From NCBI GenBank assembly GCA_022508535.1, contig JAFLUZ010000004.1:18130-82129 (forward strand): DNA of 64,000 bases, in the 5' to 3' direction. Positions 21,248 through 63,222 of the stretch are shown here, in pieces (the stretch's first letter is position 1; each line of letters opens with the position of its first letter). Source of the stretch: Erysipelotrichales bacterium. Its GTDB lineage: Bacteria > Bacillota_I > Bacilli_A > RFN20 > CAG-826. The position numbers and the translations under genes are program-made. The notes beneath the pieces are model-generated. The model had not been told where the DNA came from. It saw only the letters and a program-made list of their open reading frames with translations, and made no database searches.

Positions 21248-23518
21248 ATGAAAAAAAACATTATTAAATCATTTGTATTAATAAGTATGTTGTCAATTTG
21301 TGCATTATTAAATATTAATTTTAATAATGCTTATGTTTTGGCGGAAAATGTTGATGCTAGATTAGAATACTATAATCTTAATGGTGTAAATAGTGAGTAT
21401 TTAGATGATATTAATGGTGCATTTGGAATCGACTTACAAAATGGATTATCTATTTTAATGTCGGCAACCCAAACTAAAATAACATCATATGATGAATTGA
21501 AAAGAGAAACAATAAATACTGATGCTGATCCAATGAATAGCAATAATATTATTACTTTATACGCTAGAGATTCAATATCTGGAGTTTGGGATTCTTCTTT
21601 ATGGAATCGTGAACATGTTTGGTGTAAAAGCTTATCCAATGGATTATACACCTCAGTTGCTGAATCACATCGAAATGCAGGTACAGATATTCATCATTTA
21701 AGACCAGCATATGTGACTTATAATTCATCAAGACAAGATAGACCATATGGCATAGTTGATAAAAATAGTGCGGACACAAAAGAATTAGGCAATACAGGAA
21801 ACTTTGCAATGCCTGGGATTTTCGAACCACGCGATGATATTAAAGGTGATGTGGCGAGAATTTTAATGTATGTCTATACTCGATATAGTAGTAATTTATC
21901 TTCAACAAATGGTGAATTGGGTCAAAGAGGAGAACTTAGGATTACTGATATTGTAAAAACTAGTTCAAATAGTGAAGTAGATGCCTGGGATTTATTAATA
22001 AAGTGGAATGAGGATGATCCAGTTGATTATTTAGAAATGCATCGCAACGATGAGGCACAAAAATTACAAGGTAATCGAAATGTTTTTATTGACCATCCAG
22101 AATTTGCAAAAATGTGTTTTGGATCTTATCAAGGAGAAGGAGCATTAGTTGATTTAAATAATACATATGATGAAAATAAAATCAGTTATCTTGGTATTAA
22201 TAATCGTAATTTAACATTAATTGCAGGGAGAAGTGAAAGTTTTATTGCTAAGACTTTTCCTGAAAATATAGCTGCACCTACTATTAAGTGGAAGTCATTT
22301 GATAATAGCATTGTTACTATTAATTCTTCAGGTAAAGCTGTAGCAATTAATGAAGGCAATACAGTAATAGAAGCATATGTTGTTGATAGCGTGGGTGCTG
22401 CTGATACATCAAGTAAAAAGGTAGATAATGTTTTGTTATCAGTAAAATGTAATGTTGAAGTAGTTAATTCAAAACTAATATATAGATATGATGGTAATGC
22501 ATTAAGCACTACTAGTACTTATAATTCTAATATTAAATCAGAATTTACAAGTAATAATATTACGATGGAAGTAATGGCTAGTTATGGTTCAGCAAATAAT
22601 GGCAATTTATGGTTGGGCACTAATAACAACCAAAATCATATGGATAAAAGTAAAATTGCTAAGGATAGTCCAATCGGAGTTGCGTTAACTCCTAAAATCA
22701 GTGCGGACAGAAAAGGTGCAGTCTTATATTTTAATGGAGAATTAGATAACGTAGGAAAAGTTACTTTCCAACAACTCGGAGGGCAAAGTGGCACTTATAT
22801 TTATCTTCTTTACTCAATAGATTTTGGTGATACCTACCAACAAATTGGTGAAAGACTAAATATTGGTGGAAGTACTGAAATGATAACATTTAATTTTGAT
22901 ACAATCGAAAGAGCAAGATATGCAATTGCACTTACTACTGCAGATGATTCAAGATATTATGTTCAATCTAAAAAGCCATCAGTCACGTTTTATTCGGAAG
23001 AAGTTACTGGAGATGAACTAGTAGATGATTTATTAAATAATTTTGATGTGAATGATCTTGATAATAGCATTTATCAAGCAACTTTAATAACTAATGCAAA
23101 TGATAAATATATAACACTTACGGAAAGTGAAAAGAATAATATATCAAAGAATAATATTGCTAAATTAGAATCACTTTCCAATGAGCAACTTCAAGGATAT
23201 AGTTTTATTTATTGTTATTGGAGTAAAACAATTAATGAATTATCGCAAGCTGAAATTGATGAAATTGTTGAGGCTTTTAATAATTTGCCAGAAGATGGAA
23301 AAGCGTTTGTTTCAAAAATGAAAAACGTCACAATGGAATATGATGATATTATAACTATTGGAGATGCTATTAAACAATTTGATAAAGATGACAACAATGA
23401 TACTCAACAAGACCCGGATATTCCTAGCAATAATTATTTATGGGCTATTGTAGGAGTTGGAATTGGGGTAATAATAATTGCTATTGCACTGATATTTATT
23501 TTAAAAAGAAAACATTAA
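21248..23518 (+). CDS. membrane-anchored extracellular nuclease: Endonuclease-I family domain plus Big_2 plus an unnamed domain (domain Y) plus a C-terminal TM anchor
   Basis: Signal peptide. NREHVWCKS and GTDIHHLRPAYVTYNSSRQDRPYG match the Endonuclease_1 (EndA/Vvn-like) catalytic motifs. Big_2-like segment at 331-400. Domain Y spans about 408-575. The C-terminus LWAIVGVGIGVIIIAIALIFILKRKH is a hydrophobic anchor followed by basic residues. Confidence 0.7.
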   Translation: MKKNIIKSFVLISMLSICALLNINFNNAYVLAENVDARLEYYNLNGVNSEYLDDINGAFGIDLQNGLSILMSATQTKITSYDELKRETINTDADPMNSNNIITLYARDSISGVWDSSLWNREHVWCKSLSNGLYTSVAESHRNAGTDIHHLRPAYVTYNSSRQDRPYGIVDKNSADTKELGNTGNFAMPGIFEPRDDIKGDVARILMYVYTRYSSNLSSTNGELGQRGELRITDIVKTSSNSEVDAWDLLIKWNEDDPVDYLEMHRNDEAQKLQGNRNVFIDHPEFAKMCFGSYQGEGALVDLNNTYDENKISYLGINNRNLTLIAGRSESFIAKTFPENIAAPTIKWKSFDNSIVTINSSGKAVAINEGNTVIEAYVVDSVGAADTSSKKVDNVLLSVKCNVEVVNSKLIYRYDGNALSTTSTYNSNIKSEFTSNNITMEVMASYGSANNGNLWLGTNNNQNHMDKSKIAKDSPIGVALTPKISADRKGAVLYFNGELDNVGKVTFQQLGGQSGTYIYLLYSIDFGDTYQQIGERLNIGGSTEMITFNFDTIERARYAIALTTADDSRYYVQSKKPSVTFYSEEVTGDELVDDLLNNFDVNDLDNSIYQATLITNANDKYITLTESEKNNISKNNIAKLESLSNEQLQGYSFIYCYWSKTINELSQAEIDEIVEAFNNLPEDGKAFVSKMKNVTMEYDDIITIGDAIKQFDKDDNNDTQQDPDIPSNNYLWAIVGVGIGVIIIAIALIFILKRKH

Positions 23519-29790: not shown

Positions 29791-29836
29791 CAAACTAGAT
29801 GTATCAATCTAGTTTTTTAAAAGGAAGGTGAAAATA

Positions 29837-31387
29837 ATGAAGAAAAAATCGATAATATTATTGATAATATTTGTTCTATTTAATTGCTTTATTTTCGCCG
29901 AGGCTTTAACACCAGGTGATGCATCTGGTGCTCAAAGCGATAGTATAACAAATGTATTTAATGACTTGCATAATTATGTAGGGAAAGATGAGTTTGAATA
30001 TGTAAAGCCAACTAAAATTGAGATTACAAATAATGATTCTATGTTCGTTGGAGAAACAATTAAACTATCTCCTAAGATTACTCCTAGTAATACTACAAAT
30101 ACTGCCACAATATATGAATCATTAACTCCAGATATTGCTACTGTTGATATGGATGGAAATGTTTATGCCATAAAAAAAGGCGAAGCAACAATTCGTGCTA
30201 AATGTGATGATGATGAAAGTGTATTTGTCGATTTTGTAATTATTATTAATGAACAAGAACAAATATCACCGACTGAAATTAGTTTCCAAAATAGTAGTGC
30301 CAAAATAAAAAATAAAAGAGCTACATATATTCAAGATTTAATTGGTAACATTATATTTTCTCCTGGTGATTGTACAGATCGAAGTGTAAGATATGAGATT
30401 TCTAATAACTATGGTTCAATTAGTGGTGATTACCTAATTTCTAATGAACCTGGTGATTTAATATTGAAAGCAATTTTGAATAGCAATAATAGTATTTATT
30501 GTGAAATGAAAGTTACTATTTTAGATGATGTAGCAACAAAGCCGAAAACTATTACTATTAAAAATATTGGCGATGTATATATAAATAGGTATGCAGAAAT
30601 TGATGTTGAATTTGACAAAGACAATATTGATGATAAAACATTAAACTATATTATCGAAACAGAAGATTTAAAAACTATCGCAAGCTATAATATTAAAAAT
30701 GGGTTAAAAGGAATTAGAGAGGGTAAAGGCACAGTTCAAGCTTGTTCTGTTTATAACAATGAAATTTGCTCAAATAAGATGGAATTTGAAGTGAATAAAG
30801 TATCTTTGGACGATCTTGAAATAAAATATAATGAATCTATTTTAGAGTATTTTAAATCAGGCGAGAAAATAGAATTATCATATGCATTATATCCTAGTGA
30901 TGTCACTTATAAAGATGTTGAATGGTCAGTGAATAGTGATAATGCAAAAATATCGCAAAGTGGATTACTCGTTGCTTTGAAAGAAGGTACAACTACTGTG
31001 ACATTAAAGCATCTTGATTCAGGATTAACAGCAACTCACAAAATAAAGATTTTCAAAGCATCAGCGTTAAACCGTCAACAATTAGATAAGTTAAAGAAAA
31101 ATATAAGAAAATTAATAGGTCATTTTAGCTTGTTTGCTATAGATGGAATTATTGGTTTTTTATTCTTTATGTCTTTAGATATTAAAAAGAGAGATAAGAC
31201 AATCATTATAATAGCTACGGGTATTTTAATTGCGGTAATTGCAGAATTATTGCAATTAATTCCTAAGGGAAGAAGCTGTCAATTTAGCGATATGGTAATT
31301 AATTCCAGTGGCTTTTTGATGGGAATAGCGTTGTCACTTATATTTTTCAAAATAAAATCGCGTATAGAACAAAGGAGGAAGAATTAA
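29837..31387 (+). CDS. secreted protein with multiple Big_2 domains fused to a C-terminal VanZ-like membrane domain
   Basis: Signal peptide, then several roughly 80-aa Ig-like segments (...TIRAKCDDDESVFVDFVII, ...GKGTVQACSVYNNEICSN, ...GTTTVTLKHLDSGLTATHKIKIF). The C-terminus FSLFAIDGIIGFLFF...GRSCQFSDMVINSSGFLMGIALS matches the VanZ family motif. Confidence 0.6.
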   Translation: MKKKSIILLIIFVLFNCFIFAEALTPGDASGAQSDSITNVFNDLHNYVGKDEFEYVKPTKIEITNNDSMFVGETIKLSPKITPSNTTNTATIYESLTPDIATVDMDGNVYAIKKGEATIRAKCDDDESVFVDFVIIINEQEQISPTEISFQNSSAKIKNKRATYIQDLIGNIIFSPGDCTDRSVRYEISNNYGSISGDYLISNEPGDLILKAILNSNNSIYCEMKVTILDDVATKPKTITIKNIGDVYINRYAEIDVEFDKDNIDDKTLNYIIETEDLKTIASYNIKNGLKGIREGKGTVQACSVYNNEICSNKMEFEVNKVSLDDLEIKYNESILEYFKSGEKIELSYALYPSDVTYKDVEWSVNSDNAKISQSGLLVALKEGTTTVTLKHLDSGLTATHKIKIFKASALNRQQLDKLKKNIRKLIGHFSLFAIDGIIGFLFFMSLDIKKRDKTIIIIATGILIAVIAELLQLIPKGRSCQFSDMVINSSGFLMGIALSLIFFKIKSRIEQRRKN

Positions 31388-33317: not shown

Positions 33318-36116
33318 TTATTTAACTAATTTGTTTTTTCTTCTTAAGAGAACGTATCCAACGAATGTTCCAGCGATTAATGCCATAACAATTGCGATTG
33401 TGCCAGCGTTATCTTTAACAGCTGTTAATAATAATCCGCTTGCTGGTTGATCAGCACTTGGAGTTACATCCATTCCTAAGAATGATCTTAAGTATTCAAC
33501 AGAATTTTTAATTGTATTTCCTTCATAATCTAATGAAGCATCAACAATTGCTTTGACTTCTGGACTTAATGCATCATATTTTGCAATCATTGCTTTGAGT
33601 TCACTTGCTTCACCATTTAATTGATCACAAATGCTTCCTTCATCATTTCTTAATGCTAACCATTCTTGTACGAATGCATCTGCTTCAACTTGTGGATCTA
33701 CTTCTACAATGATTTCAAATGGACCTACTAAAGCATAGTCTGAATCAAGATAATGTTCACCATCACCAAGAGTTTTGACATATACATCATAAGTTCCTGC
33801 TGCGTAGTCATCATTTGGATTTAAATATCCACCATTAGTAATATCGTGTTCGTATTTGACTTTCTCGCCTTGACGATATTGAACATGATAGCCACTTGCA
33901 TTAGTGACATCAGCAAATGCTAATATTTTACGACCATCCCCAGTTGTATTAATAACAAGTCCCACTGGAGCATTTAATTTAACTGGTTCAACTGGTTTAT
34001 CAGGATCAGGTTCAGTGACATCATTAACATAAGTTCCTTTTGCTACTAAAACGTCATTTTCAAACCATTCAAAGACATATTCTTTTTCTTTGTAGTCACT
34101 ATCAGTAATATAAGCATTGAATTCATGATCATTTAAGTATTCAAACATTAATGGTTGTTTACCATTAATCTTTGTATTTTGTGCTGTTTTTCCTTCTAAA
34201 GTAACATCTGAACGATCAATTGAATAAGAGAAACGTCCATAGTGATCATTATATTTGTTTGTTAATTCTAATGTTACATTTGCAACTTCGACTTCTTCAC
34301 TAGGTGTAGTGTGTTCTGTTAATTGTGAACCAGTTGGCATTTCAGGAGTTTTGTTTCCATAGTTTATTAGTTTACCATAACATACTACTGTGTCACCAAC
34401 TGCAACTTGATCTTCGGCTGTGAATTTTTCGCCACCAAGATAATAAATTCTATATAATCTTAATACATCTACACCATCAGCAGTATCTGCAATATCCATT
34501 GTGGCGTTACCAAATGATGGGGAGATTTCGACAATATTTGTAACGATACCTTTTACATAATAACTTTCTGTTGTGTTTGCATTACCAGCATCTACACATA
34601 CTTTGATAGCGTCTTCAACTGTTAATGGATCATCTTCAGTTCCTGCGTGTTCTAACATTAGGGCTTCTTTGACTTGAATAGAAGGAGTAGAAACTGAGTA
34701 GTCAGTACCATTAACATTAATTTTAGCAGTTGCAACAAATGTACCTGCTGCTAAAGCTGTTACCTTGCCATCTACATCTATTGAAGCGACAGAAGTATTA
34801 TTAACAGACCATTCAACTGTAGCGCCTTCAGCATTTCTTGTTTTAGTTTCTAAATCAAGAGTTTCACCAACGCGCATAACACTTGGGATGGTTGTTTCAA
34901 TAGAAATTGATGGTTTATCCTTTTCAACTGCCTTTTCCCAAACAACAGTAATGCTATCTAGATATAGAGCACCATTAGTAGAAGTCATACCAAAGTGTGC
35001 ATATTGTCCTTTTGGTACATATGTTGTACCAGAAGATTTTGCAATTGATCCTTCTTCGGCTTTGGCAACATCTTTATTATATAAATCATTAGGTGATGCG
35101 AAAGCAGAGTCGGAGAAATAGATTTTTACTGATCTAGCATCTGAAGTATTAGAATTCCATGCAACTCTAATTTCTTTAATTGTGCCACCAGATACTACTG
35201 AAACAACACCAGCATAATCACTGGAATTAGCAGCAGTAGTACTTCTTAATTGGATAGAAGAGTATTGACCTGCTGAATATCCTTTATATGTAGCACCCGA
35301 GTTGAAATTACCTGTTGTATCCCAACCCTTATAAGTATTAGCAGTTGAGTTAATTGTGTTAGCATTATTTAACACATCTTCAATCGCATCTGTTTCAGGA
35401 GCTTCAATGACATTTACGGTAAATGTATCATACAATGATTCTTTTTCATCATAATAAGCTGTTGCCACAACGTCATCTTTGACCACAGAAGTATCTACAT
35501 TGACATGATGAGCTTTGGCAGTACCAGTTGTACTATCATCATATGTAAGTGTCAATTCAACATCATCACCAGAAATGCTTCCACCTTGATATACTGTGTC
35601 TGGATGTGAAGCAATAGCTACAGATGAAACTGTCTTTTCAGGATCAGGTGCAGTAGATGTATTATAATACACTGTTAAATTATCCCATCTTGCTTGAGCA
35701 GTAGGGGTAAATGTAATGGTTGTTGCACTGCCACTAAAATCTAATGTAACAACTTTACCGCTGGTACTTACCGTCGGTGCAACTGACCAAAATGCTGTGT
35801 TAGCTGTGTTTGTAACATAATTTCCTGTTTGATTTGCTGTTACAACCAATTTTGTTATGCTTGTAGCCGGCGAATCTACACTAATTGTAAAAGTTGAATT
35901 TGCATAAATTCTTAATGGTGTGTAAGTGTTATATTCTGACATTGAAACTGTTACAGGTCCATCTGTCATTGCTGCACTCATACCACTTGAAAAATTAAAT
36001 TGAACATTTTCTTCGGCTTTTACACTTTTTGAGACTTTTTCACCAACAAGCCCTATTCCCATCATTAAAGCAAAAGAAGCAAATAATAAAGGGACTTTTT
36101 TGTTAAACTTTTTCAT
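33318..36116 (-). CDS. large surface protein (932 aa): signal peptide, N-terminal domain X, Big_2 domains, and a C-terminal hydrophobic anchor. It is a paralog of the protein at 36807..38396.
   Basis: MKKFNKKVPLLFASFALMMGIGLVG is a signal peptide. Residues 40-150 are more than 60% identical to the paralog. Big_2-like segment ...EWSVNNTSVASIDVDGKVTALAAGTFVATAK. The C-terminus ...GTIAIVMALIAGTFVGYVLLRRKNKLVK is an anchor. RBS AGGAAAGGA. Confidence 0.7.
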   Translation of the reverse strand: MKKFNKKVPLLFASFALMMGIGLVGEKVSKSVKAEENVQFNFSSGMSAAMTDGPVTVSMSEYNTYTPLRIYANSTFTISVDSPATSITKLVVTANQTGNYVTNTANTAFWSVAPTVSTSGKVVTLDFSGSATTITFTPTAQARWDNLTVYYNTSTAPDPEKTVSSVAIASHPDTVYQGGSISGDDVELTLTYDDSTTGTAKAHHVNVDTSVVKDDVVATAYYDEKESLYDTFTVNVIEAPETDAIEDVLNNANTINSTANTYKGWDTTGNFNSGATYKGYSAGQYSSIQLRSTTAANSSDYAGVVSVVSGGTIKEIRVAWNSNTSDARSVKIYFSDSAFASPNDLYNKDVAKAEEGSIAKSSGTTYVPKGQYAHFGMTSTNGALYLDSITVVWEKAVEKDKPSISIETTIPSVMRVGETLDLETKTRNAEGATVEWSVNNTSVASIDVDGKVTALAAGTFVATAKINVNGTDYSVSTPSIQVKEALMLEHAGTEDDPLTVEDAIKVCVDAGNANTTESYYVKGIVTNIVEISPSFGNATMDIADTADGVDVLRLYRIYYLGGEKFTAEDQVAVGDTVVCYGKLINYGNKTPEMPTGSQLTEHTTPSEEVEVANVTLELTNKYNDHYGRFSYSIDRSDVTLEGKTAQNTKINGKQPLMFEYLNDHEFNAYITDSDYKEKEYVFEWFENDVLVAKGTYVNDVTEPDPDKPVEPVKLNAPVGLVINTTGDGRKILAFADVTNASGYHVQYRQGEKVKYEHDITNGGYLNPNDDYAAGTYDVYVKTLGDGEHYLDSDYALVGPFEIIVEVDPQVEADAFVQEWLALRNDEGSICDQLNGEASELKAMIAKYDALSPEVKAIVDASLDYEGNTIKNSVEYLRSFLGMDVTPSADQPASGLLLTAVKDNAGTIAIVMALIAGTFVGYVLLRRKNKLVK

Positions 36117-39996: not shown

Positions 39997-40008
39997 TTGG
40001 AGGTATTT

Positions 40009-41388
40009 ATGAAAAAAAGAAAAACAATAATGATATTATTATCTCTAATTTGTGGAATGGGACTTGTTTCTTGTGGCGATAATAATGAAAATAGTTATGA
40101 AGCCACATATACGGTTACGTGGATTAATGATAATGGCGATATTTTAGAAGTGGATTCAAATGTTAAAGAAGGCACGATTCCTACTTATGATGGAGAAACA
40201 CCTACAAAAGTTGGTAATGCACAATATTCTTATGTCTTTGCTGGATGGGATCATGAAATAGTAGAAGTATATGAAAATACAACGTATACTGCTACATTCT
40301 CACAAAGTACAAATAAATATGTAGTTACGTGGGTTAATTATAATGGCGATGTTTTAGAAGTAGATGAAGATGTAGAATATGGCACAATGCCAAGCTTTGA
40401 TAGTGCTACACCAACAAAGGAAGGAAATGAAGAAATAAACTATATATTTTCTGGTTGGTCTCCTTCTATTAGTGAAGTAAAAGGGAATGCCACATATACT
40501 GCTACATTTATTGAAAGACATAACGGAGAATTAATTCCAGGTGCGGATCCAATTGTTTCTGAAGATGGAAAAACTATTCAATATGGCTTTTATCCTCAAA
40601 CCTATGTTAGTGATAAAACATTAATTGCAGAACTTGATAATTTGACAACAACTGAAGTAAATGGATGGTATTTATATAATGGTGATTATTATACAAAAGA
40701 AATAGCGAAAGTCTATAATAATGAAAACTATACTTTTGATGATGGTACAACTATCATCAATGGAAGTGAATATTGGTTTAAATGTGAAATTATCGAATGG
40801 AAAGTTCTTAGTGTTGAAAGTGGCTCATACTTCTTATTAGCATCTAAATTATTAGATACTCATAATTACTATAAAAATTATTCTAATAGGACAATTGATA
40901 ATGCGACTGTTTATGCGAACAACTATGAACAAAGTGATATTCGAGCCTGGTTAAATGATGATTTCTATAATACAGCATTTAATTTAAATAATAGTTATAT
41001 TCATGAAACAATAGTTAGTAATAGCACTACAACAGATATGAGTAGTGATAATCAATATATTTGTAATGATACAAATGACAAAGTTTATTTGCTAAGTTAT
41101 CAAGATTATTTAAATTCTAATTATGGGTTCGGCTCTAGCGCTGCTGAAGCATCATCTACAAGAGAAGCAAGAACTACTGATTATGCAAGAGCAAGAGGGG
41201 CATGGTGTAATACTAGGGATACATCTAAACCTGGTTTAAAGTTTAATGGATCTTATTGGACACGTTCTCCATCTAATGAATACTATTATTGTGCTTGGAA
41301 CGTTAATTCTAGTGGCTATTTAAGTACATATGCAGTTGATGGTGACAGTCATTGTGTTCGTCCTAGTATTTCAATTAGTGTGGCGTAG
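40009..41388 (+). CDS. lipoprotein with two Listeria-Bacteroides-type repeats (flg_new / InlB B-repeat-like) and a C-terminal domain of unknown function
   Basis: Lipobox LSLICGMGLVSCG. Two roughly 68-aa repeats, YTVTWINDNGDILEVDSNVKEGTIPTYDGETPTKVGNAQYSYVFAGWD...TYTATF and YVVTWVNYNGDVLEVDEDVEYGTMPSFDSATPTKEGNEEINYIFSGWS...TYTATF. The ATG at 40009 follows the RBS GGAGG. Confidence 0.65.
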   Translation: MKKRKTIMILLSLICGMGLVSCGDNNENSYEATYTVTWINDNGDILEVDSNVKEGTIPTYDGETPTKVGNAQYSYVFAGWDHEIVEVYENTTYTATFSQSTNKYVVTWVNYNGDVLEVDEDVEYGTMPSFDSATPTKEGNEEINYIFSGWSPSISEVKGNATYTATFIERHNGELIPGADPIVSEDGKTIQYGFYPQTYVSDKTLIAELDNLTTTEVNGWYLYNGDYYTKEIAKVYNNENYTFDDGTTIINGSEYWFKCEIIEWKVLSVESGSYFLLASKLLDTHNYYKNYSNRTIDNATVYANNYEQSDIRAWLNDDFYNTAFNLNNSYIHETIVSNSTTTDMSSDNQYICNDTNDKVYLLSYQDYLNSNYGFGSSAAEASSTREARTTDYARARGAWCNTRDTSKPGLKFNGSYWTRSPSNEYYYCAWNVNSSGYLSTYAVDGDSHCVRPSISISVA

Positions 41389-52714: not shown

Positions 52715-52742
52715 TATTTAAATTTACTTTACTAACTTAAAA

Positions 52743-52770
52743 ATGATGCATATTTCTGCATCATTTTTTA
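52743..52770 (+). terminator. rho-independent terminator of yebC
   Basis: ATGATGCA-tatttc-TGCATCAT followed by TTTTTTAT. Confidence 0.65.
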
Positions 52771-52796
52771 TATAATCGACATAAGATAGCATTTAA

Positions 52797-52827
52797 AAAA
52801 GAAGCAAACACAGGATTTGCTTCTTTT
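52797..52827 (-). terminator. rho-independent terminator of the 744-aa peptidase gene
   Basis: AAGAAGCAAA-cacagga-TTTGCTTCTT with a T-tract on the minus strand. Confidence 0.6.
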
Positions 52828-52841
52828 TGTATTGTTAAATT

Positions 52842-55076
52842 TTAATATCTATACCATGAACCATATGTTGAATTAAGTTCGCGCCAATTATCAAAATATG
52901 TTTCAGATTTAGTGTATGATGATCTACTTCCATATCCACCAATTGCACAGAAGAAGTTTAATCCACCAGCATCATCAGAGTCTTTACCATAAACATTATA
53001 AATAACAAGTTCTTCAAATGCTTTTTCTACTTCATCAATTCCTGTTGAAGAATAAGTAGCATCTTCTTTCATTGCTTCTATAAAATCTTTTACATCAAAT
53101 ACATCGAAAGGATAACCATAACTTGAGTCGTAACCGAATTTTTGGCATCCGTTAACAAGAGTTTTGAATGATGTCCATTTGCTAGGACTTGTAATAATAC
53201 TAGAAAGATTCGCGGACATATTTTCCCATGCCTCACGGAAACTAGGCATTTTACTTAAATCTAATACAGACATTGTTGCATCATTGAAATCACGATATCC
53301 CCAAGATTTATAAAACACATCACATTTTTCTACGAATGTATCTGCAATTTCTTTTAATAAATCAGGAGTTTCTATTTTTGTGTTTTCATATAAATCATCA
53401 AGCCAATTGTCATAATCCCAACCTTCACCAGGTTCACTTTCTTGAGATGCGACCATATATTCAAAATAATCACTATTTAAATCAGCGACATCGGCTGTTG
53501 CCATTAAACAACAGTCATAACCAATCCATGATAATTTTTCGCTTACACCAGCGTTTAAGAATGCTTTTTCTAACGCACTATGCGCTTCACCACTTGTTAA
53601 TGCATCGTAATCATAGATCTCATCATAACAACTTCCTTGTACTGCTCCACCATGTCCCCATAAAACAACACCAGTTTGGTTTGCTGGGTATTTTGTTAAT
53701 CCCCATTCCATAAAGCTTTGGAAAGTGGAAGATGCGCCCATTGAAGCATTTGGAAGTTCTTCATCCATAACAAGACTTTGATTTTCTACATGCCATCTTT
53801 GAAGATTGTTGGAACTAATTCCGTGTGTTGAACTCCATTTTTTAGCACCACCAGTTTGAATGATGATATTAAGATTATCAGGCATATTATCTAATGAAAG
53901 TATTTCTGTAATATTTTCTGAAGCTAACCCTGCGTCAGTTTCTAAGTCAGTTCCACTAAGATAAATCATAACTGTGTAATCATCTAGGAGTTGATCTTTA
54001 ACTTCAACTTCACAGGATGCAACTTTATTTCCTTCTTCAGAAGATACAGTGATTACGGTTGTGCCAGCACCAAGTGCCTCAACGATTCCATCAGTAACTG
54101 TTGCAACTGCTGGATTACTTGAATTCCAAATTAGATTTTTATTTGTTGCGTTTTCAGGAAGAATAGTTGCGACCAATTTATAAGTTTGATTTATGAATAA
54201 TTCAAGTGAAGTTTTATTTAGAGTTAAACTTGTGATTGGAACATTTTTAACAGTAATAGTAACTTTACCTTGAATATCTACATTATTATCTCCTTTTACT
54301 GTTGCGGTAATTTCAGTAGTTCCACTTTTTAAAGCAGACACTCTACCATTGTCTGAAACTGTTGCAACAGAAGAATCACTTGATTCCCACACAACACCTT
54401 TTCTATTAGTGTTAGCTGGTGTGAAGTTAACTGATAGTTGTGTTTCATATCCGACCATTAAATTTGTTTCACCAACAATATTTATAGATTTAGCGTATAT
54501 TGGGTCACCGATTTTGCCACGATAAATTTGCGGATAAGCTTGTACAGAAGTAAAAGTTCTAAAGTTGGATTTTACTGAATTGTAGTAAAGTGTTCCAAAA
54601 GTGCTATTGGTGTTTCGAATAGTTGCATTACCATCACTTGAGATACTAATATCCCAAGTAGTAGTGCCAGAGTCCCAAGCTAGTTCACGAGAAGATGAAG
54701 CACCTAACAATTCACCATTTTTATTTATTAATGTCCAATTTCCATTTTCTTCACCTAAAGTAAATTGAATAGTTCCGCTAGATAAAGATGTAATTGTCTT
54801 TTTATCATTAGTAAATGTTGAAGTTTCTGCAACTAAATAACGGGTATTATTTTCAAATCCCATTTCACCAGCCGTAGAATTATTTTTAGAATTTGCGATA
54901 ACAATGACATCGCCAGCGTGTAATTCTGTTTCATCGGTTATTAAGTTCCAAGATAATTCTTCAGCTACATTTGATCCTGAGTTTTGGCTATTTGAAGTAT
55001 TACTAGAATCAGAACACGATGCACAAGTTAATAATGTAAGTGCAAAGAGTAAGAATATTTTTTTAGATTTGTTCAT
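52842..55076 (-). CDS. lipoprotein with two Big_2 domains and a C-terminal clostripain-like (C11, clan CD) cysteine peptidase domain
   Basis: Lipobox LLTCASCS. Big_2 segments (...GETNLMVGYETQLSVNFTPANTNRKGVVWESSDSSVATV...). The peptidase domain has His in VVLWGHGGAVQG and Cys in WIGYDCCLMATADVA, matching the C11 H/C dyad spacing. Confidence 0.6.
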   Translation of the reverse strand: MNKSKKIFLLFALTLLTCASCSDSSNTSNSQNSGSNVAEELSWNLITDETELHAGDVIVIANSKNNSTAGEMGFENNTRYLVAETSTFTNDKKTITSLSSGTIQFTLGEENGNWTLINKNGELLGASSSRELAWDSGTTTWDISISSDGNATIRNTNSTFGTLYYNSVKSNFRTFTSVQAYPQIYRGKIGDPIYAKSINIVGETNLMVGYETQLSVNFTPANTNRKGVVWESSDSSVATVSDNGRVSALKSGTTEITATVKGDNNVDIQGKVTITVKNVPITSLTLNKTSLELFINQTYKLVATILPENATNKNLIWNSSNPAVATVTDGIVEALGAGTTVITVSSEEGNKVASCEVEVKDQLLDDYTVMIYLSGTDLETDAGLASENITEILSLDNMPDNLNIIIQTGGAKKWSSTHGISSNNLQRWHVENQSLVMDEELPNASMGASSTFQSFMEWGLTKYPANQTGVVLWGHGGAVQGSCYDEIYDYDALTSGEAHSALEKAFLNAGVSEKLSWIGYDCCLMATADVADLNSDYFEYMVASQESEPGEGWDYDNWLDDLYENTKIETPDLLKEIADTFVEKCDVFYKSWGYRDFNDATMSVLDLSKMPSFREAWENMSANLSSIITSPSKWTSFKTLVNGCQKFGYDSSYGYPFDVFDVKDFIEAMKEDATYSSTGIDEVEKAFEELVIYNVYGKDSDDAGGLNFFCAIGGYGSRSSYTKSETYFDNWRELNSTYGSWYRY

Positions 55077-55404
55077 AAATTTTCCTCCTTAAACTTAGCC
55101 GTAAATATTATTTTACATAATATTAACATCAAAAGTAAATGTTTTTTAGAAATTAATACGAATTAATTTTTACGTAAAAACAGTATATAATATTTAATTT
55201 TGAAATTATTTGTGTCAAACCTTTGTGAAAAAACAACTAATTTTTCATTATTCTTTTTTTTGAATATCATGCAAAAAGCGCTGTAATTAACGTATAGAAA
55301 ATGAAATTATTCTACATTGACGATAGTTATTAAAAAAAAACCAGCATTATGTATGCGTGGTCTAAAGAAACTGTATAGTTATAAAATCCAGTTTTTGCTA
55401 ATTA

Positions 55405-58002
55405 TTAATACCATGTTCCATATTTGATATTGAGATTACGCCAATTCGTGAAATATGTATCAGAAGTTGTATATGTTGACTTTTGGCTATATCCATAAAC
55501 TGCACAGAAGAAGCATAGCCCAGATGCATCAGCAGAGTCTTTGCCATAGGTATTGTATATCACTAATGCATTAAACGCATTTTCTACATCATTAATGCCA
55601 ATTTGAGAATAAGTTGAATTTGCTTTTATTAAATCAATGAAGTCTTTCATATCAAATACATCAAAAGAATAACCATATTCATCATCGTAGCCAAATTGTT
55701 GACATTTTTTAACAAGTGTTTTAAAAGTTGACCAAGAACTGCTGCTTGTAATAATGCTAGAAAGTTTAAGGGCCATATTTTCCCAAGCTTCACGGAAACT
55801 AGGCATTTTACTTAAATCTAAAACAGACATTGTTGCGTCGTTAAATCCACGATATTGACCGCCATAGCTATTATAGCTAGCAGCGCATTTTGTAACGAAA
55901 GTATCAGAAATTTCTATTAGTAATTCAGGTGCTTCGATTTTTGTGTTGCTATAAATATTATCAATCCAATTATCATAATCCCAACCCTCACCAGGTTCAC
56001 TTTCTTGGGATGCAACCATATATTCGAAATAATCACTATTTAAGTCAGCAACATCTGCTACTGCCATTAAGCAAGCATCATAGCCAATCCAAGACAATTT
56101 TTCTGTTCTACCAACATTTTTAAAAGCATTTTTTAGCGCAGTATGTACTTCACTATTTGTCAAAGGATCATCATTGAAGTTTTCATCATAGCAACATCCA
56201 TCCATTGCGCCACCATGATTCCACAATACTACACCAGTTTGGCTTGCTGGATATTCAGTTAATCCCCACTCCATAAAACTTTGGAAAGTAGAAGATAATC
56301 CCATTGAAGCTTTTGTGAGTTGGTCGTCTTTTACTAATTGGTTATTCTCAACATGCCATCTTTGTAAGTAATTAGCACTAATACCATATTTAGTTTTCCA
56401 TTTTTTAGCGCCACCAGTTTCGATAATAATATTGACATTATCTGGTTTATTTTTGACGGAAAGAATCTCGGTAATATTATCAGTGGCTAATCCGCCATCA
56501 GAAGCACTTTCTAAGTCGGAACCGCACATATAAATCATAATCGTATAATCATCAAGGACAATATCTTTTACTTCAACATTACATGTGGCTTTGAAATTAC
56601 CATCTTCTGTTGTTGCAGTAATTATTGCTGAACCTGCACTAATACCAGTTACTGTACCATCTTTTACTGTGGCAATTGAGTTGTTGCTAGAAGTCCAAGT
56701 TACATTTTTATTAGTTGCGTTATTTGGAAGAATATTTGCAGTTAATTTAGAAGTTTTATTAATAGCTAATTCGATAGATGTGTTGTTTAAATTTATACCT
56801 GTAACAGGAACGGCTTTGATAGTAATAGTAATATTGTCTTGAATAAGATTATTATTATCTCCTTTAACAATGGCACTTATTGTCGCTGTTCCTTCTTTAA
56901 GAGCTGTTACAAGTCCTTTGTTAGAAATAGATGCGATTGAGGTATTACTTGATTGCCAAGTAACATCTTTCATGTTTGTGTTTGAAGGAGTGTAATTAAC
57001 GTATAATTGTGTTTCTTCTCCGATAGCTAAATCACTTTTTCCAACAATTTCAATTGATTCTGCATATACAGGATTAGCAATTTTGCCGCGATAAATTTGA
57101 GGATAAGTTTGAACTGAAGTGTATGTTGTAAAGCGAGGGCTTTGTTTGTTGTAATATAGTGTGCCGTAATTACTTTGTGTATTACTAATCGTTGCATTAC
57201 CATTACTAGCGATACTGATATTCCAAGTTGTACTACCAGAATCCCAAGCTAAGTTTTTAGCAGATGTGGCACCTAACAATTCGCCATTTTCATTAGATAA
57301 TGTCCAATAATTATTGTTTTTCCCAATAGTTAATAATGTGGCATTCTCATTTAAAGATGAAATGGATTTTTTATCATTTGAGAAAGTTGAACTAACTGCT
57401 TCTAAGTAATGAGTATTGCTACCTGTCTTTATTTGACCTGCTGTGTTACCGCCATCGGAGTTAGCAATAACAATTATATCTCCAACATGTAAATCGGATT
57501 CACTAGTTATTAAGTCCAAAGTGCTTGATTCATTAGATTCTACTGAGATTGTGCATTGAGTAGAAACTTTACTACCATCATTTGCAGTTACCTTAATAAT
57601 GGCGGTGCCCACAGATTTTGCAAGAACAACACCATTTTCATCAACACTAGCAATGCTAGAGGAAGATGAGGTCCAAGTGACACTTTTATCTGTTGCATCT
57701 TCAGGTAACACTATGCATTTAAGTGAAAATTGTTCACCAATTTTCATAATTCGATTTTCAGCATTTAATTCTAATGAATTAACATAAACAATACTTGAAG
57801 ATGGAATAGAACTTGAATCGGGGAGTACTGACGAATTGGAATGTGAAGGACTTGCTGATTCTTGGTTCGTACTACTGGTGTTTTCTGATAGTGGCGCTGA
57901 GTTAGCGCTATTTGAATTTGATCCAGAGTTAATTGTGCTACATGCCGTACAAGCTAGTAGAGCAAGTATTGGAAATATAAATAATTTTTTTGTACTTTTC
58001 AT
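55405..58002 (-). CDS. lipoprotein paralog (865 aa): an extra N-terminal Big_2 domain, a Ser-rich linker, two Big_2 domains, and a C11 clostripain-like peptidase domain
   Basis: Lipobox LLACTACS. Ser/Asn-rich low-complexity segment. VVLWNHGGAMDG and WIGYDACLMAVADVA are the catalytic motifs. It is about 65% identical to the 52842 gene across the shared region. Confidence 0.6.
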   Translation of the reverse strand: MKSTKKLFIFPILALLACTACSTINSGSNSNSANSAPLSENTSSTNQESASPSHSNSSVLPDSSSIPSSSIVYVNSLELNAENRIMKIGEQFSLKCIVLPEDATDKSVTWTSSSSSIASVDENGVVLAKSVGTAIIKVTANDGSKVSTQCTISVESNESSTLDLITSESDLHVGDIIVIANSDGGNTAGQIKTGSNTHYLEAVSSTFSNDKKSISSLNENATLLTIGKNNNYWTLSNENGELLGATSAKNLAWDSGSTTWNISIASNGNATISNTQSNYGTLYYNKQSPRFTTYTSVQTYPQIYRGKIANPVYAESIEIVGKSDLAIGEETQLYVNYTPSNTNMKDVTWQSSNTSIASISNKGLVTALKEGTATISAIVKGDNNNLIQDNITITIKAVPVTGINLNNTSIELAINKTSKLTANILPNNATNKNVTWTSSNNSIATVKDGTVTGISAGSAIITATTEDGNFKATCNVEVKDIVLDDYTIMIYMCGSDLESASDGGLATDNITEILSVKNKPDNVNIIIETGGAKKWKTKYGISANYLQRWHVENNQLVKDDQLTKASMGLSSTFQSFMEWGLTEYPASQTGVVLWNHGGAMDGCCYDENFNDDPLTNSEVHTALKNAFKNVGRTEKLSWIGYDACLMAVADVADLNSDYFEYMVASQESEPGEGWDYDNWIDNIYSNTKIEAPELLIEISDTFVTKCAASYNSYGGQYRGFNDATMSVLDLSKMPSFREAWENMALKLSSIITSSSSWSTFKTLVKKCQQFGYDDEYGYSFDVFDMKDFIDLIKANSTYSQIGINDVENAFNALVIYNTYGKDSADASGLCFFCAVYGYSQKSTYTTSDTYFTNWRNLNIKYGTWY

Positions 58003-58168
58003 AAAAGAATCCTCCTAGTCCTAGATGAAAGATTTTATTATACATATTAATTGTACTAAATGTAAATAAATTTTGAAAATTAAATACATTTAATTTTAAT
58101 AATTTGGAGTGTTTATTTTTATATATAGACTAAATGTTATAAAATAAGGCAATTGACTTAAAATCTTC

Positions 58169-58197
58169 TTGACACAATCAAATAATATATATATTAT
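58169..58197 (+). promoter_or_regulatory. sigma-A promoter of rplM-rpsI
   Basis: TTGACA (58169-58174), a 17-nt spacer, then TATTAT (58192-58197), about 65 nt before the rplM ATG. Confidence 0.55.
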
Positions 58198-58262
58198 TTT
58201 AAGTGGCACATAGCCTGATTGTAGTCCCGGTAAGACAAACAATTTGGTAAGGAGGATTAATT

Positions 58263-61119: not shown

Positions 61120-63222
61120 ATGAAAAAAATGAAGACTTTTTTAGTCACTATGCTAGCACTTTGTGGATTAACTGCATGTGGAACTAATAATGATAGTCAA
61201 CCTAGTACACCAAATTCTGAAAATACATCAACTTCAAAAGAAGTAATCTGGAGTGAAGAAATTGATGCTGATATGGAATTATATCTTGGAACAGTTTTAC
61301 CTTATTTCGAGTTAGGTAATGAATTTGAATATGGTTTTGATGAAGATGAAGAAGGTATCTATTTCTATGCTTATGACTATGATACAAAAGATCTCACAGA
61401 TAATATTGTAAATGTTTTTGAGAAGGCAGGATACGAGTATGATAGTGAATACGAAGGCTATACATTCTTATATAAGGAAACAAGTCTTGGAGATTTAATA
61501 GTCCAAATTGGTTACTATAGTGATGTAGATGATTATGGAAACACAGTATTTGCTTGGATTCCTAGTGAAGATGATTCAGGCGATACTGAAAAGAATGGAT
61601 GGACTGATGAAGAGAAGGCTGACATGCTTGACACATGGGGATTTGAAATTCCTTTCTTTGCTGAAGGTTTAGATGCAGAAATGTATTTTGAGTCTGGCTC
61701 ATTAACTAGTTATATTTATGATATTGATATGACAGATGATCTTATTGATATTTTCTTAGATTTAGGATTCGAATATGACGAATTAAGTGATGGCTATCAT
61801 TACTTAATTATGGATATCGAAGATGGAATAATTGAAGTTGCGATTGCGTATACCGAAGATGAAGATTATGGCAATTACACAGAAGTGTATGGCTATATCT
61901 TATATCCATATGCTTTGATAAGAGATGAATTTATGTCTGACGGTGACGCAGTTTTATCTCAAGATTGGATTGAAGAGGAAATTAAAGAATATTTAGAAAC
62001 TAGAATTGCTATTCCTGAACCAGAATCTTCAGAATTTGCTTACGTTGAATATATTTATAGTGATGAAGAAACAAGCGAAAACACTCCATGTGTTGATGTA
62101 CTATTCCTAGATGAAGGAGATTATTTTGCGGATTTAGAAGAACTTGGTTGGTCTATTGAACTTGATTTCTTCTATTATTATTTCTTTGGTATAGAATACT
62201 ATAATACAGTTGATCCAACAGGCACTATTGAAATGGATTTATATGTTGAACAAGTAATTGAAGGCTATTGTTTATATGCTTCAATTTATAGAATTGGGGA
62301 AGAACCTACAGTCTTATCAACTGAATATAATGGCGAATATGTTGTTATGGACGATAATGGTGCATTAAGTGAAATGACAATTAGTAATGATGTTGTCACA
62401 TTTGCAAATAAAACATGGACTGTTACAAGCGAAGAAGATGATGTTTACACATTAGTAAGTGATGATGATTCTATGACATTAACTATTAATGAAGAAATAA
62501 CTTTAGCTGATGAAAACGTCACATATACTTGTATTAAAGTTGAAGAAGTAAAATTATCAAGAGCCGAACAAGGTACATATAATAATGGAACTATGACAGT
62601 TGTTATTGAAAAAAACACTGTTACTATTAATGAGGAAGATGCTAAAGTTGTTGCTTTAACTGATGATGGGATTCTTGTTGTAATAGATGATGTATTATAT
62701 GTATTTGAAATTACTGTTGAAGAAGAATCAACATCACTAGTAATTAGAAATGTATTTACTGAAGAAGAATACGCAACATTAGAAAAAGAAACATCACTTG
62801 ATAGAGTAGTCGAAGATGTAACATTTGATTTAACTTCAATGGAAACATCTGAGGAAAGTGATGCTAAAGTTGTATTTGAAAAAGACGATGCTCAAATTAT
62901 TTTAGAAAAAGGCAATAACAAGAACACAGGTGCAAATAATGGCTTACCATCTCAATATAAACATTTACGTGTATACTCTGGCCAAAAATTAACATTCGCT
63001 GTTGATGGTACAATTGATACAATTAAAATTGCTTATTCAAGTGTAGAAAAGGCAGATAAATTCAACTTAGAAGGTTGTGTTGTGACAGGTGGCACAATTG
63101 AATTTGGTGCAAATGAACTTATAATTACTGCTGATGCTGATGTATCTGAAGTAAGCATTCAATTTGCAGGTACAGCAGGACATATTAGAGTTACATCTGT
63201 GGTAATTTCAGCCCTATTTTAA
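61120..63222 (+). CDS. highly acidic lipoprotein (700 aa) with a C-terminal domain X
   Basis: Lipobox LALCGLTACG. The protein is very rich in Asp, Glu and Tyr, with internal repeats (EYDSEYEGYTFLY / EYDELSDGYHYLI). The C-terminal 110 aa, ...QYKHLRVYSGQKLTFAVDGTIDTIKIAYSS...VSIQFAGTAGHIRVTSVVISALF, resembles domain X. Confidence 0.6.
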   Translation: MKKMKTFLVTMLALCGLTACGTNNDSQPSTPNSENTSTSKEVIWSEEIDADMELYLGTVLPYFELGNEFEYGFDEDEEGIYFYAYDYDTKDLTDNIVNVFEKAGYEYDSEYEGYTFLYKETSLGDLIVQIGYYSDVDDYGNTVFAWIPSEDDSGDTEKNGWTDEEKADMLDTWGFEIPFFAEGLDAEMYFESGSLTSYIYDIDMTDDLIDIFLDLGFEYDELSDGYHYLIMDIEDGIIEVAIAYTEDEDYGNYTEVYGYILYPYALIRDEFMSDGDAVLSQDWIEEEIKEYLETRIAIPEPESSEFAYVEYIYSDEETSENTPCVDVLFLDEGDYFADLEELGWSIELDFFYYYFFGIEYYNTVDPTGTIEMDLYVEQVIEGYCLYASIYRIGEEPTVLSTEYNGEYVVMDDNGALSEMTISNDVVTFANKTWTVTSEEDDVYTLVSDDDSMTLTINEEITLADENVTYTCIKVEEVKLSRAEQGTYNNGTMTVVIEKNTVTINEEDAKVVALTDDGILVVIDDVLYVFEITVEEESTSLVIRNVFTEEEYATLEKETSLDRVVEDVTFDLTSMETSEESDAKVVFEKDDAQIILEKGNNKNTGANNGLPSQYKHLRVYSGQKLTFAVDGTIDTIKIAYSSVEKADKFNLEGCVVTGGTIEFGANELIITADADVSEVSIQFAGTAGHIRVTSVVISALF

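Follow-up and report, generated by a model that had tools for sequence, protein, structure and literature searches.

Tandem predicted C11 peptidase lipoproteins with Big_2 and β-trefoil domains at the yebC-rplM junction of an Erysipelotrichales bacterium

The 64-kb stretch of DNA considered here (the window, within which all positions are counted) belongs to a metagenome-assembled genome (MAG) of an Erysipelotrichales bacterium (GCA_022508535.1, JAFLUZ010000004.1) and contains two adjacent minus-strand genes for predicted surface lipoproteins with clostripain-like (C11) peptidase domains. Gene A (52842..55076; 744 amino acids (aa); MCH5180151.1) was delimited by a listing of open reading frames (ORFs) and an exact database match, and gene B (55405..58002; 865 aa; MCH5180152.1) by the ORF listing, its product being identical to the sequence P0005. 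Both ORFs lie exactly where a preliminary description of this DNA had placed them. They are separated by a spacer at 55077..55404, and their products are paralogues with 65% identity over 708 residues. Both are under-annotated in GenBank, where the two proteins from the Erysipelotrichales MAG are named merely "Ig-like domain-containing protein". The gene order around them is ecfA-ecfT-truA-PHP-yebC, the two C11 genes on the opposite strand, rplM-rpsI-Amidase_3-PTS_EIIC_2 and a gene for a 700-aa lipoprotein.

Architecture, anchoring and duplication of the gene pair

The protein of gene A begins with a signal peptide and lipobox (residues 1-21, ...LLTCAS-C; 55014..55076, delimited from the N-termini of 16 orthologues), which is followed by a β-trefoil module without a Pfam family (residues 37-194; 54495..54968, defined by AlphaFold2 (AF2) modelling, Foldseek and the protein clusters described below), two Big_2 domains (residues 195-278 and 279-361; 53994..54494, from Pfam and a tblastn module map), and a Peptidase_C11 domain with a C-terminal domain (residues 362-744; 52845..53993, from Pfam, AF2 and Foldseek). 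In gene B, the signal peptide and lipobox (residues 1-21, ...LLACTA-C) and a Ser/Asn-rich linker (residues 22-71) together occupy 57790..58002, and an extra N-terminal Big_2 domain with no counterpart in gene A follows (residues 72-155; 57538..57789). The β-trefoil module (residues 156-313; 57064..57537) is 59% identical to that of gene A (profile E-value (E) 1.1e-68), and behind it lie two Big_2 domains (residues 314-481; 56560..57063, again from Pfam and the tblastn module map) and the Peptidase_C11 domain (residues 482-865; 55408..56559, Pfam E 4.9e-36). Pfam detects Big_2 (PF02368) in two stretches of gene A (E 2.1e-27) and three of gene B (E 1.2e-47), in agreement with the two shared copies claimed earlier and with the additional copy assigned to the upstream gene after a Ser/Asn-rich linker. 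A chance origin of this set of features is excluded. Databases already contain proteins that combine Big_2 and C11 domains, listed under a generic name, and the architecture recurs in dozens of homologues.

Both N-termini consist of a basic n-region and a hydrophobic h-region followed by Cys21, and the lipobox pattern [LIC][ATSV][SAG]-Cys is conserved in 16 of 17 family sequences, P0018 being the exception; several orthologues have this lipobox Cys as their sole Cys. Each N-terminus therefore has a signal peptide and the invariant Cys expected of a lipoprotein, with an atypical Cys at position -3 in the window proteins. Lipidation at Cys21 is plausible on these features, and so is the lipobox-mediated surface tethering proposed in the preliminary description, the lipobox being conserved across orthologues. 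Thetapain and iotapain, two C11 enzymes of Bacteroides, likewise carry lipoboxes and are membrane-tethered (10.1101/522870), as is proposed for the window proteins. For the exceptional P0018 (794 aa), the gene call lacks a signal peptide, and a 541-aa ORF upstream runs 22 nt into its start; the two, which together span L002:6397-10385 (+), may represent one longer gene split by a frameshift or a gene-calling error.

In an identity matrix and a neighbour-joining tree calculated for the shared core, the 744-type and 865-type proteins form sister clades, and the single-copy protein of the relative L007 branches outside both; the duplication therefore post-dates that split. The shorter paralogue has lost the N-terminal Big_2 domain and the linker. 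Relative to the orthologues in L001, the ratio of nonsynonymous to synonymous substitution rates (dN/dS) is 0.19 for gene A and 0.10 for gene B, with a dS of approximately 0.64-0.72. Constraint extends to all domains and is strongest in the C11 domain (0.16 in gene A, 0.05 in gene B), indicating that both copies are functional, with selection slightly weaker on the shorter paralogue. The paralogues show no obvious sign of recent gene conversion: dS between them is approximately 1.1 in all three regions compared, and no near-identical DNA tract was reported.

Catalytic domain and activation linker

Peptidase_C11 (PF03415) matches residues 383-702 of gene A (E 8.5e-36, 124.7 bits) and residues 491-825 of gene B (E 4.9e-36, 125.4 bits), far above the cut-off of 25.8 bits. 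The motifs on which the C11 proposal had been built are present in both proteins: LWGHGG at residue 472 and GYDCCLMA at residue 519 of the 744-aa protein, and LWNHGG at residue 593 and GYDACLMA at residue 640 of the 865-aa protein. When a profile built from 22 C11 domains of the family was run against solved structures, clostripain (9cip) was the best relative (E 3.8e-24), followed by 6mzo (the P. distasonis zymogen), thetapain (6n9j), 5dyn (a B. fragilis cysteine protease) and PmC11. An AF2 model of residues 362-744 of gene A (predicted local distance difference test (pLDDT) 91, predicted TM-score (pTM) 0.92) shows a predicted caspase-like α/β/α sandwich with the C11-specific C-terminal domain. 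In Foldseek searches of the PDB, its top ten matches are all C11 structures, with 375-414 aligned columns and a query TM-score (TMq) of 0.64-0.71 for the full-length chains. Clostripain 9cip comes first (E 7e-19, TMq 0.71); other clan-CD folds, such as legumain and the RTX and TcdA cysteine protease domains, fall far behind. The caspase-fold assignment made before these searches is thereby borne out, the top matches of the predicted fold being exclusively C11 structures. Both proteins belong to peptidase family C11 of clan CD, and this family assignment is a standard one.

The predicted dyad comprises His475 (codon 53652-53654) and Cys523 (53508-53510) in gene A, and His596 (56215-56217) and Cys644 (56071-56073) in gene B, with the codons verified on the minus strand. 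These residues align with the dyads of 9cip, 6mzo and 4yec; the His and the second Cys of D(C/A)CLMA fall on clostripain His176/Cys231 and PmC11 His133/Cys179, as the preliminary description had required. Because this second Cys is the nucleophile, the C/A variation before it is harmless. Asp521 of gene A (53514-53516) and Asp642 of gene B (56077-56079) align with the S1 Asp of clostripain (Asp229) and PmC11 (Asp177); the residue numbers of the references follow PMC11296011 (H176/D229/C231) and PMC4850288 (H133/D177/C179). The catalytic His, the S1 Asp and the Cys are invariant in all 43 homologous C11 domains. A hand alignment places PmC11 Asn50 opposite Asp377 and PmC11 Asp207 opposite Glu551. 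Since Asp521 and Asp642 lie in the S1 pocket, cleavage after Arg or Lys is expected. A function as surface-exposed, predicted Arg/Lys-directed cysteine endopeptidases is well supported, the specificity for Arg or Lys being one that we infer.

All characterised C11 enzymes are zymogens that are cut after Lys or Arg between the catalytic His and Cys (PMC4850288, 10.1101/522870, PMC11296011, PMC10315481). PmC11 is cleaved at K147 (PMC4850288), thetapain at R147 and iotapain at K152/R154/R172 (10.1101/522870), and globupain at K137 and K144, its heavy chain beginning G145VCWD (PMC10315481). Clostripain is cut at Arg181 and Arg190, and the linker 182-190, which gates the pocket, is removed (PMC11296011). 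Such a Lys/Arg cleavage segment after the His is typical of characterised C11 enzymes, although it lies outside the formal definition of the family, and it was not found in the window proteins. In the profile alignment, "HGGald-GvCyDe" of the window-protein family stands against "HGGGAR-eksnprlnr-AICWDD" of clostripain, and the nine clostripain residues aligned by HMMER as an insertion are exactly the excised linker 182-190. The residue at His+5 is Gln480 in gene A and Asp601 in gene B, no Lys or Arg occurs from His+1 to +27, and the first Lys, at +29 and +28, respectively, lies within a predicted helix. Across the family, the His+1 to +20 segment is acidic (mean net charge -3.9) and has no basic residue in 26 of the 43 members, including all close relatives of the window proteins. 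In the AF2 model, it is predicted to form ordered β-strands rather than a flexible loop.

The absence of the linker and of the basic activation site in this clade is a new departure from the characterised C11 enzymes. Because both are missing, and because linker-deletion variants of clostripain give active enzyme (Witte et al. 1996, cited in PMC11296011), the window proteins are probably naturally linker-less single-chain enzymes without autoprocessing.

Clostripain from Clostridium histolyticum (C11.001, 9CIP) is the best match in both sequence and structure, with an identity of only approximately 20%. It shares with the window proteins the His/Cys dyad, the S1 Asp two residues before the Cys, a heavy-chain start of the form C-(W/Y)-D-(D/E), the C-terminal domain and Sec-dependent export. 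However, clostripain has a propeptide and a 9-residue linker that is excised in a Ca2+-dependent manner at Arg181/Arg190, whereas the window proteins have neither the linker nor either Arg; it is also soluble, secreted and single-domain, whereas the window proteins are predicted lipoproteins with β-trefoil and Big_2 domains. The C11 enzymes of gut commensals, namely thetapain and iotapain (Bacteroides thetaiotaomicron), fragipain, PmC11 and the P. distasonis zymogen (6N9J, 6NAG, 5DYN, 3UWS/4YEC, 6MZO), share the dyad, the acidic S1 pocket and the fold (TMq 0.64-0.67), and are more distant from the window family than clostripain (profile E 1e-5 to 1e-10). In contrast to the window proteins, this set comes from the Gram-negative Bacteroidota, consists of single-domain enzymes of approximately 370-400 aa without β-trefoil or Big_2 domains, and is activated by a cut after Lys/Arg 11-31 residues past the His. 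The heavy-chain start "GVCWD" of globupain, from an Archaeoglobales MAG, matches "GVCYDE" of the window family, and His+5 corresponds to its first cleavage position (PMC10315481); however, globupain needs dithiothreitol, Ca2+ and cleavage at K137/K144 that removes an intervening segment, which is absent in the window proteins.

A further Cys at His+8 (Cys483 in gene A, Cys604 in gene B), within "G-x-C-Y-D-E", is invariant across 22 aligned C11 domains. It aligns with the Cys of clostripain "AICWDD" and appears to match that of globupain "GVCWD"; the available excerpts of the C11 literature state no role for it.

The N-terminal β-trefoil module

The preliminary description had assigned an N-terminal domain of about 170 aa and unknown function to each protein. 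The domain is real, and scans of Pfam and NCBIfam gave no significant match for it, but its length is nearer 150 residues. The only hint from Pfam was an insignificant one to RicinB_lectin_2 (E 0.49, 11.6 bits against a cut-off of 25.6 bits), and no QxW motifs were found in an alignment of module sequences, so that membership of the ricin-type lectin family is not indicated. An exhaustive search of 1.8 billion representatives located the module in at least 721 protein clusters (clustered at 50% identity), 405 of them at E <= 1e-10. It often occurs in two to four copies per protein, at variable positions in large proteins, and also in carrier proteins without a detected catalytic domain. Its Pfam partners among 51 carrier proteins include Flg_new (13), Big_2 (12), Endonuclease_1 (10), Flg_new_2 (9), Peptidase_C11 (6), Big_3 (6), Endonuclease_NS (4) and Peptidase_M6 (3).

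An AF2 model based on 24 family sequences is all-β (pLDDT 94.1), and all of its leading Foldseek matches are β-trefoils of moderate similarity (E 2e-4 to 1e-2, TMq 0.52-0.60), including the carbohydrate-binding module (CBM) of lacto-N-biosidase, the lysenin C-terminal domain, the carbohydrate-binding module of 1ups, HA33, BEL lectin and fascin. From this predicted structure we conclude that the N-terminal domain is a divergent β-trefoil that probably serves as a portable binding module of secreted hydrolases; its fold assignment and distribution are new. Its occurrence in both secreted nucleases and other proteases makes it most likely that the module binds a glycan or another polymer, or directs the enzyme to it. 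The β-trefoil lectins and CBM13-like domains (StrLNBase CBM 8HVC, the C-terminal module of 1UPS, HA33, BEL and the lysenin C-terminal domain) share the predicted fold and an accessory position on secreted hydrolases; however, they show no significant sequence similarity to the window module, which has neither QxW repeats nor a Pfam model. Binding of DNA or another polyanion, suggested by the nuclease partners, was set aside, as the module looks acidic when its sequence is read by eye. The window itself encodes a 756-aa Endonuclease_1 protein with a signal peptide and a C-terminal transmembrane anchor (21248-23518 (+)), likely a surface nuclease, in which the trefoil was looked for and not found.

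Insertion hotspot, proposed role and neighbouring features

The two genes occupy a lineage-specific variable segment of approximately 5.4 kb (52718..58159), which extends from yebC to the promoter and leader of rplM and was delimited by alignment to the relative L009 and by mapping the neighbouring genes at 80 yebC loci from GTDB species representatives. In many relatives, rplM-rpsI begins approximately 120-450 bp after yebC, for example in L009 (88% YebC identity), L019, L026, L035, L052 and L068. The empty site of L009 is approximately 340 bp long; homology ends after yebC and resumes at 58160 with 94.6% identity. The segment is a lineage-specific insertion at a variable yebC-rplM hotspot. 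The earlier claim of an insertion beside rplM-rpsI thus holds, and the conserved truA/rplM neighbourhood to which it referred is refined to truA-PHP-yebC|rplM-rpsI, with the insertion between yebC and rplM. The closest species (L001/L005, 95-96% YebC identity) carries the same tandem pair in the same place, whereas L007 has a single 865-aa homologue and two small membrane ORFs, and the distant homologue P0018 (43% identical) is a single copy located elsewhere in its genome.

At the hotspot of RUG131 (L006), a 1116-aa protein (L006:11180-14530 (-)) combines Peptidase_C1, Lectin_like (PF18560), three Big_2 domains, the same β-trefoil and a C-terminal transmembrane helix. This Cwp84-type protease resembles the window proteins in joining a cysteine protease head to Big_2 domains and the trefoil, but it has a papain (clan CA) fold, a C-terminal transmembrane anchor and a reversed domain order, in contrast to the clan CD fold and N-terminal lipid anchor of the window proteins. 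The behaviour of the hotspot, including this exchange of C11 and C1 catalytic heads, is new. Two paralogous lipoproteins of approximately 257 aa without a Pfam match are also encoded there (L006:14751-16449 (+)). No direct or inverted repeats were found flanking the 5.4-kb segment, and no mobility genes were found within it, its other ORFs of at least 80 aa being only antisense ORFs inside the two genes; a mobile-element origin is thus unsupported.

Taken as a whole, the pair is rather likely to represent surface C11 endopeptidases that degrade extracellular proteins, probably as single chains and targeted by the trefoil. Each protein would be exported through its lipoprotein signal peptide and probably lipidated at Cys21. 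The Ser/Asn-rich linker and the Big_2 spacers would hold the enzyme away from the membrane, and the β-trefoil would most likely bind a glycan or another polymer and thereby target it. Catalysis would be carried out by His475/Cys523 in gene A and His596/Cys644 in gene B, with the specificity for Arg/Lys anticipated above. The likeliest role would be to break down proteins from the host, the diet or microbes outside the cell, on the surface of a gut bacterium, so that peptides become available for uptake. The MAGs of relatives come from the rumen, rabbit, horse and human gut, and a context for peptide uptake is provided by an SBP_bac_5 protein and four co-directional ORFs at approximately 11.9-18.8 kb of the window; the SBP_bac_5 gene and these four ORFs may form a peptide-uptake operon. 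The membrane-anchored Endonuclease_1 protein and the SBP_bac_5 locus would fit a scavenger whose surface hydrolases supply its transporters. A broader reading, in which the proteins are linker-less, zymogen-free clostripains, the trefoil is a common address tag of gut Firmicutes hydrolases (nucleases, C11, C1 and M6), and C11 and C1 heads are exchanged at the hotspot, is offered tentatively.

Both roles offered in the preliminary description, processing of host proteins and maturation of other surface proteins, are speculative. The main functional rival is a Cwp84-like role in the maturation or turnover of the bacterium's own surface or secreted proteins, which appears unlikely. Peptidase_C1 with Lectin_like is the architecture of C. 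difficile Cwp84, the processor of the S-layer precursor, and its occurrence with three Big_2 domains and the same trefoil at the L006 hotspot favours such a role, as do the several other large surface proteins and lipoproteins encoded in the window and the altered turnover of secreted proteins caused by α-clostripain in C. perfringens (abstract of PMC3146509). However, the pair has no linked gene that would qualify as a substrate candidate, and nucleases, which play no part in maturation, are also partners of the trefoil. What occupies the hotspot differs from one close relative to another, and L009 has nothing there; an accessory function accounts for this better than an essential role in maturation. 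A far less credible alternative is that both are adhesins without catalytic activity whose C11 domain is only a scaffold for binding: this would agree with GenBank naming only Ig-like domain proteins and with the missing activation site, but the His, Cys and S1 Asp are invariant in all homologues and the C11 domain is the most constrained part of both proteins. The status of pseudo-enzyme was rejected on this invariance and on dN/dS.

With respect to activation, there is a lesser but appreciable chance that the proteins are still zymogens, cut at a non-canonical site (Gly-Arg-Thr-Glu-Lys, 8-11 residues before the Cys) or in trans by the paralogue or an unrelated protease. Every characterised C11 enzyme is cleaved between His and Cys, in iotapain as far away as His+31 (10.1101/522870); moreover, "GR.EK" is kept shortly before the Cys strand in most family members, Arg at His+5 or Lys at +12 is kept in some, and side-by-side paralogues would permit cross-activation. 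Against this stand the complete absence of the segment that gates the pocket in clostripain, the acidic character and predicted β-strand order of the His+1 to +20 segment, the position of the first Lys within a predicted helix, and the activity of the linker-less clostripain variants (Witte 1996, cited in PMC11296011). That gating by the lost linker has been replaced by the trefoil, acting in cis as a protease inhibitor or prodomain in the manner of mycocypins, is very improbable. Mycocypins are β-trefoil inhibitors that block clan-CD proteases, namely legumain (C13) and gingipain K (PMC9579014), the β-trefoil inhibitor cocaprin (7znx) is found among the fold matches at rank 50, and the usual autoinhibitory linker is indeed lost in this family. 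However, the module also accompanies Endonuclease_1, Endonuclease_NS and M6 metalloproteases, often as two to four tandem copies, and occurs in proteins without a detected catalytic domain; two Big_2 domains separate it from the C11 domain, and its best structural matches are trefoils of the lectin and CBM type, not inhibitors.

Several points weigh against the interpretation of the pair as lipid-anchored, single-chain, trefoil-targeted proteases with a nutritional role. The Cys at lipobox position -3 does not fit the strict PROSITE rule, and secretion after cleavage by signal peptidase I, instead of lipidation, is possible. Arg is found at His+5 in eight and Lys at +12 in six of the more distant members among the 43, so that cleavage may retain a role in the family at large. 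In the window proteins, a cut could fall at another site, such as the conserved GR-TEK that precedes the Cys strand, or be made by a different protease. That the trefoil binds glycans is a guess based on the predicted fold, given the lack of QxW motifs and the E of 0.49 to RicinB_lectin_2. The nutritional role is drawn from genomic context, and the subfamily is known from sequence and predicted structure.

The pair is a modest variation on a known enzyme type, not something new. C11 proteases of gut bacteria are under investigation as effectors acting between host and microbes, toxin activation being one example, and to our knowledge all C11 biochemistry so far concerns single-domain enzymes that need internal cleavage. 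The linker-less multidomain subfamily is widespread in uncultured Erysipelotrichales and Acholeplasmatales-like bacteria of the gut and rumen; if the single-chain interpretation is true, the subfamily would demonstrate that natural C11 enzymes can do without a zymogen step, and would offer a simpler single-chain scaffold for an Arg/Lys protease. The β-trefoil module, present in nucleases and proteases alike, deserves definition as a domain family, and its ligand would indicate what these surface hydrolases target.

Candidate regulatory sites flank both genes. Gene B is preceded by a promoter-like site, TTTACA-18-TATAAT (58037..58066 (-), 11 of 12 matches), divergent from the rplM promoter, and gene A by one with 10 of 12 matches (55218..55189 (-)); both are consensus matches only. 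Where yebC and gene A converge, a hairpin lies between their ends (52787..52837; a terminator-like site at 52796-52828 and the inverted repeat I3) and is a likely bidirectional terminator. The scans for promoters and terminators were not enriched over shuffled sequence, so these sites are candidates. An Rfam scan of 51.8-59.3 kb at E <= 0.1 found no RNA family, and no known L13 leader or riboswitch explains the intergenic regions. The rplM promoter, TTGACA-17-TATTAT (58169-58197 (+)), and a 5' leader of approximately 100 nt (58160-58262) are conserved. The leader core GTAGTCCCGGTAAGAC is invariant in seven of eight aligned loci (L066 differs slightly), in relatives whose YebC is only approximately 60-65% identical. 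The predicted fold of the leader is no more stable than that of shuffled sequence (z = 0.38), and it has no Rfam match at E <= 0.1; it may represent an undescribed ribosomal protein leader.

The window is rich in large exported proteins. The 700-aa predicted lipoprotein downstream (61120-63222 (+); lipobox LTAC) is very acidic, rich in Asp, Glu and Tyr, and without a Pfam family, and it is kept at the same position in L001/L005 with 49-57% identity. Other surface candidates are a 519-aa protein with Big_2 and VanZ (29828-31387 (+)), a 932-aa protein with one Big_2 domain (33318-36116 (-)) and a 463-aa DUF6273 protein (39997-41388 (+)).

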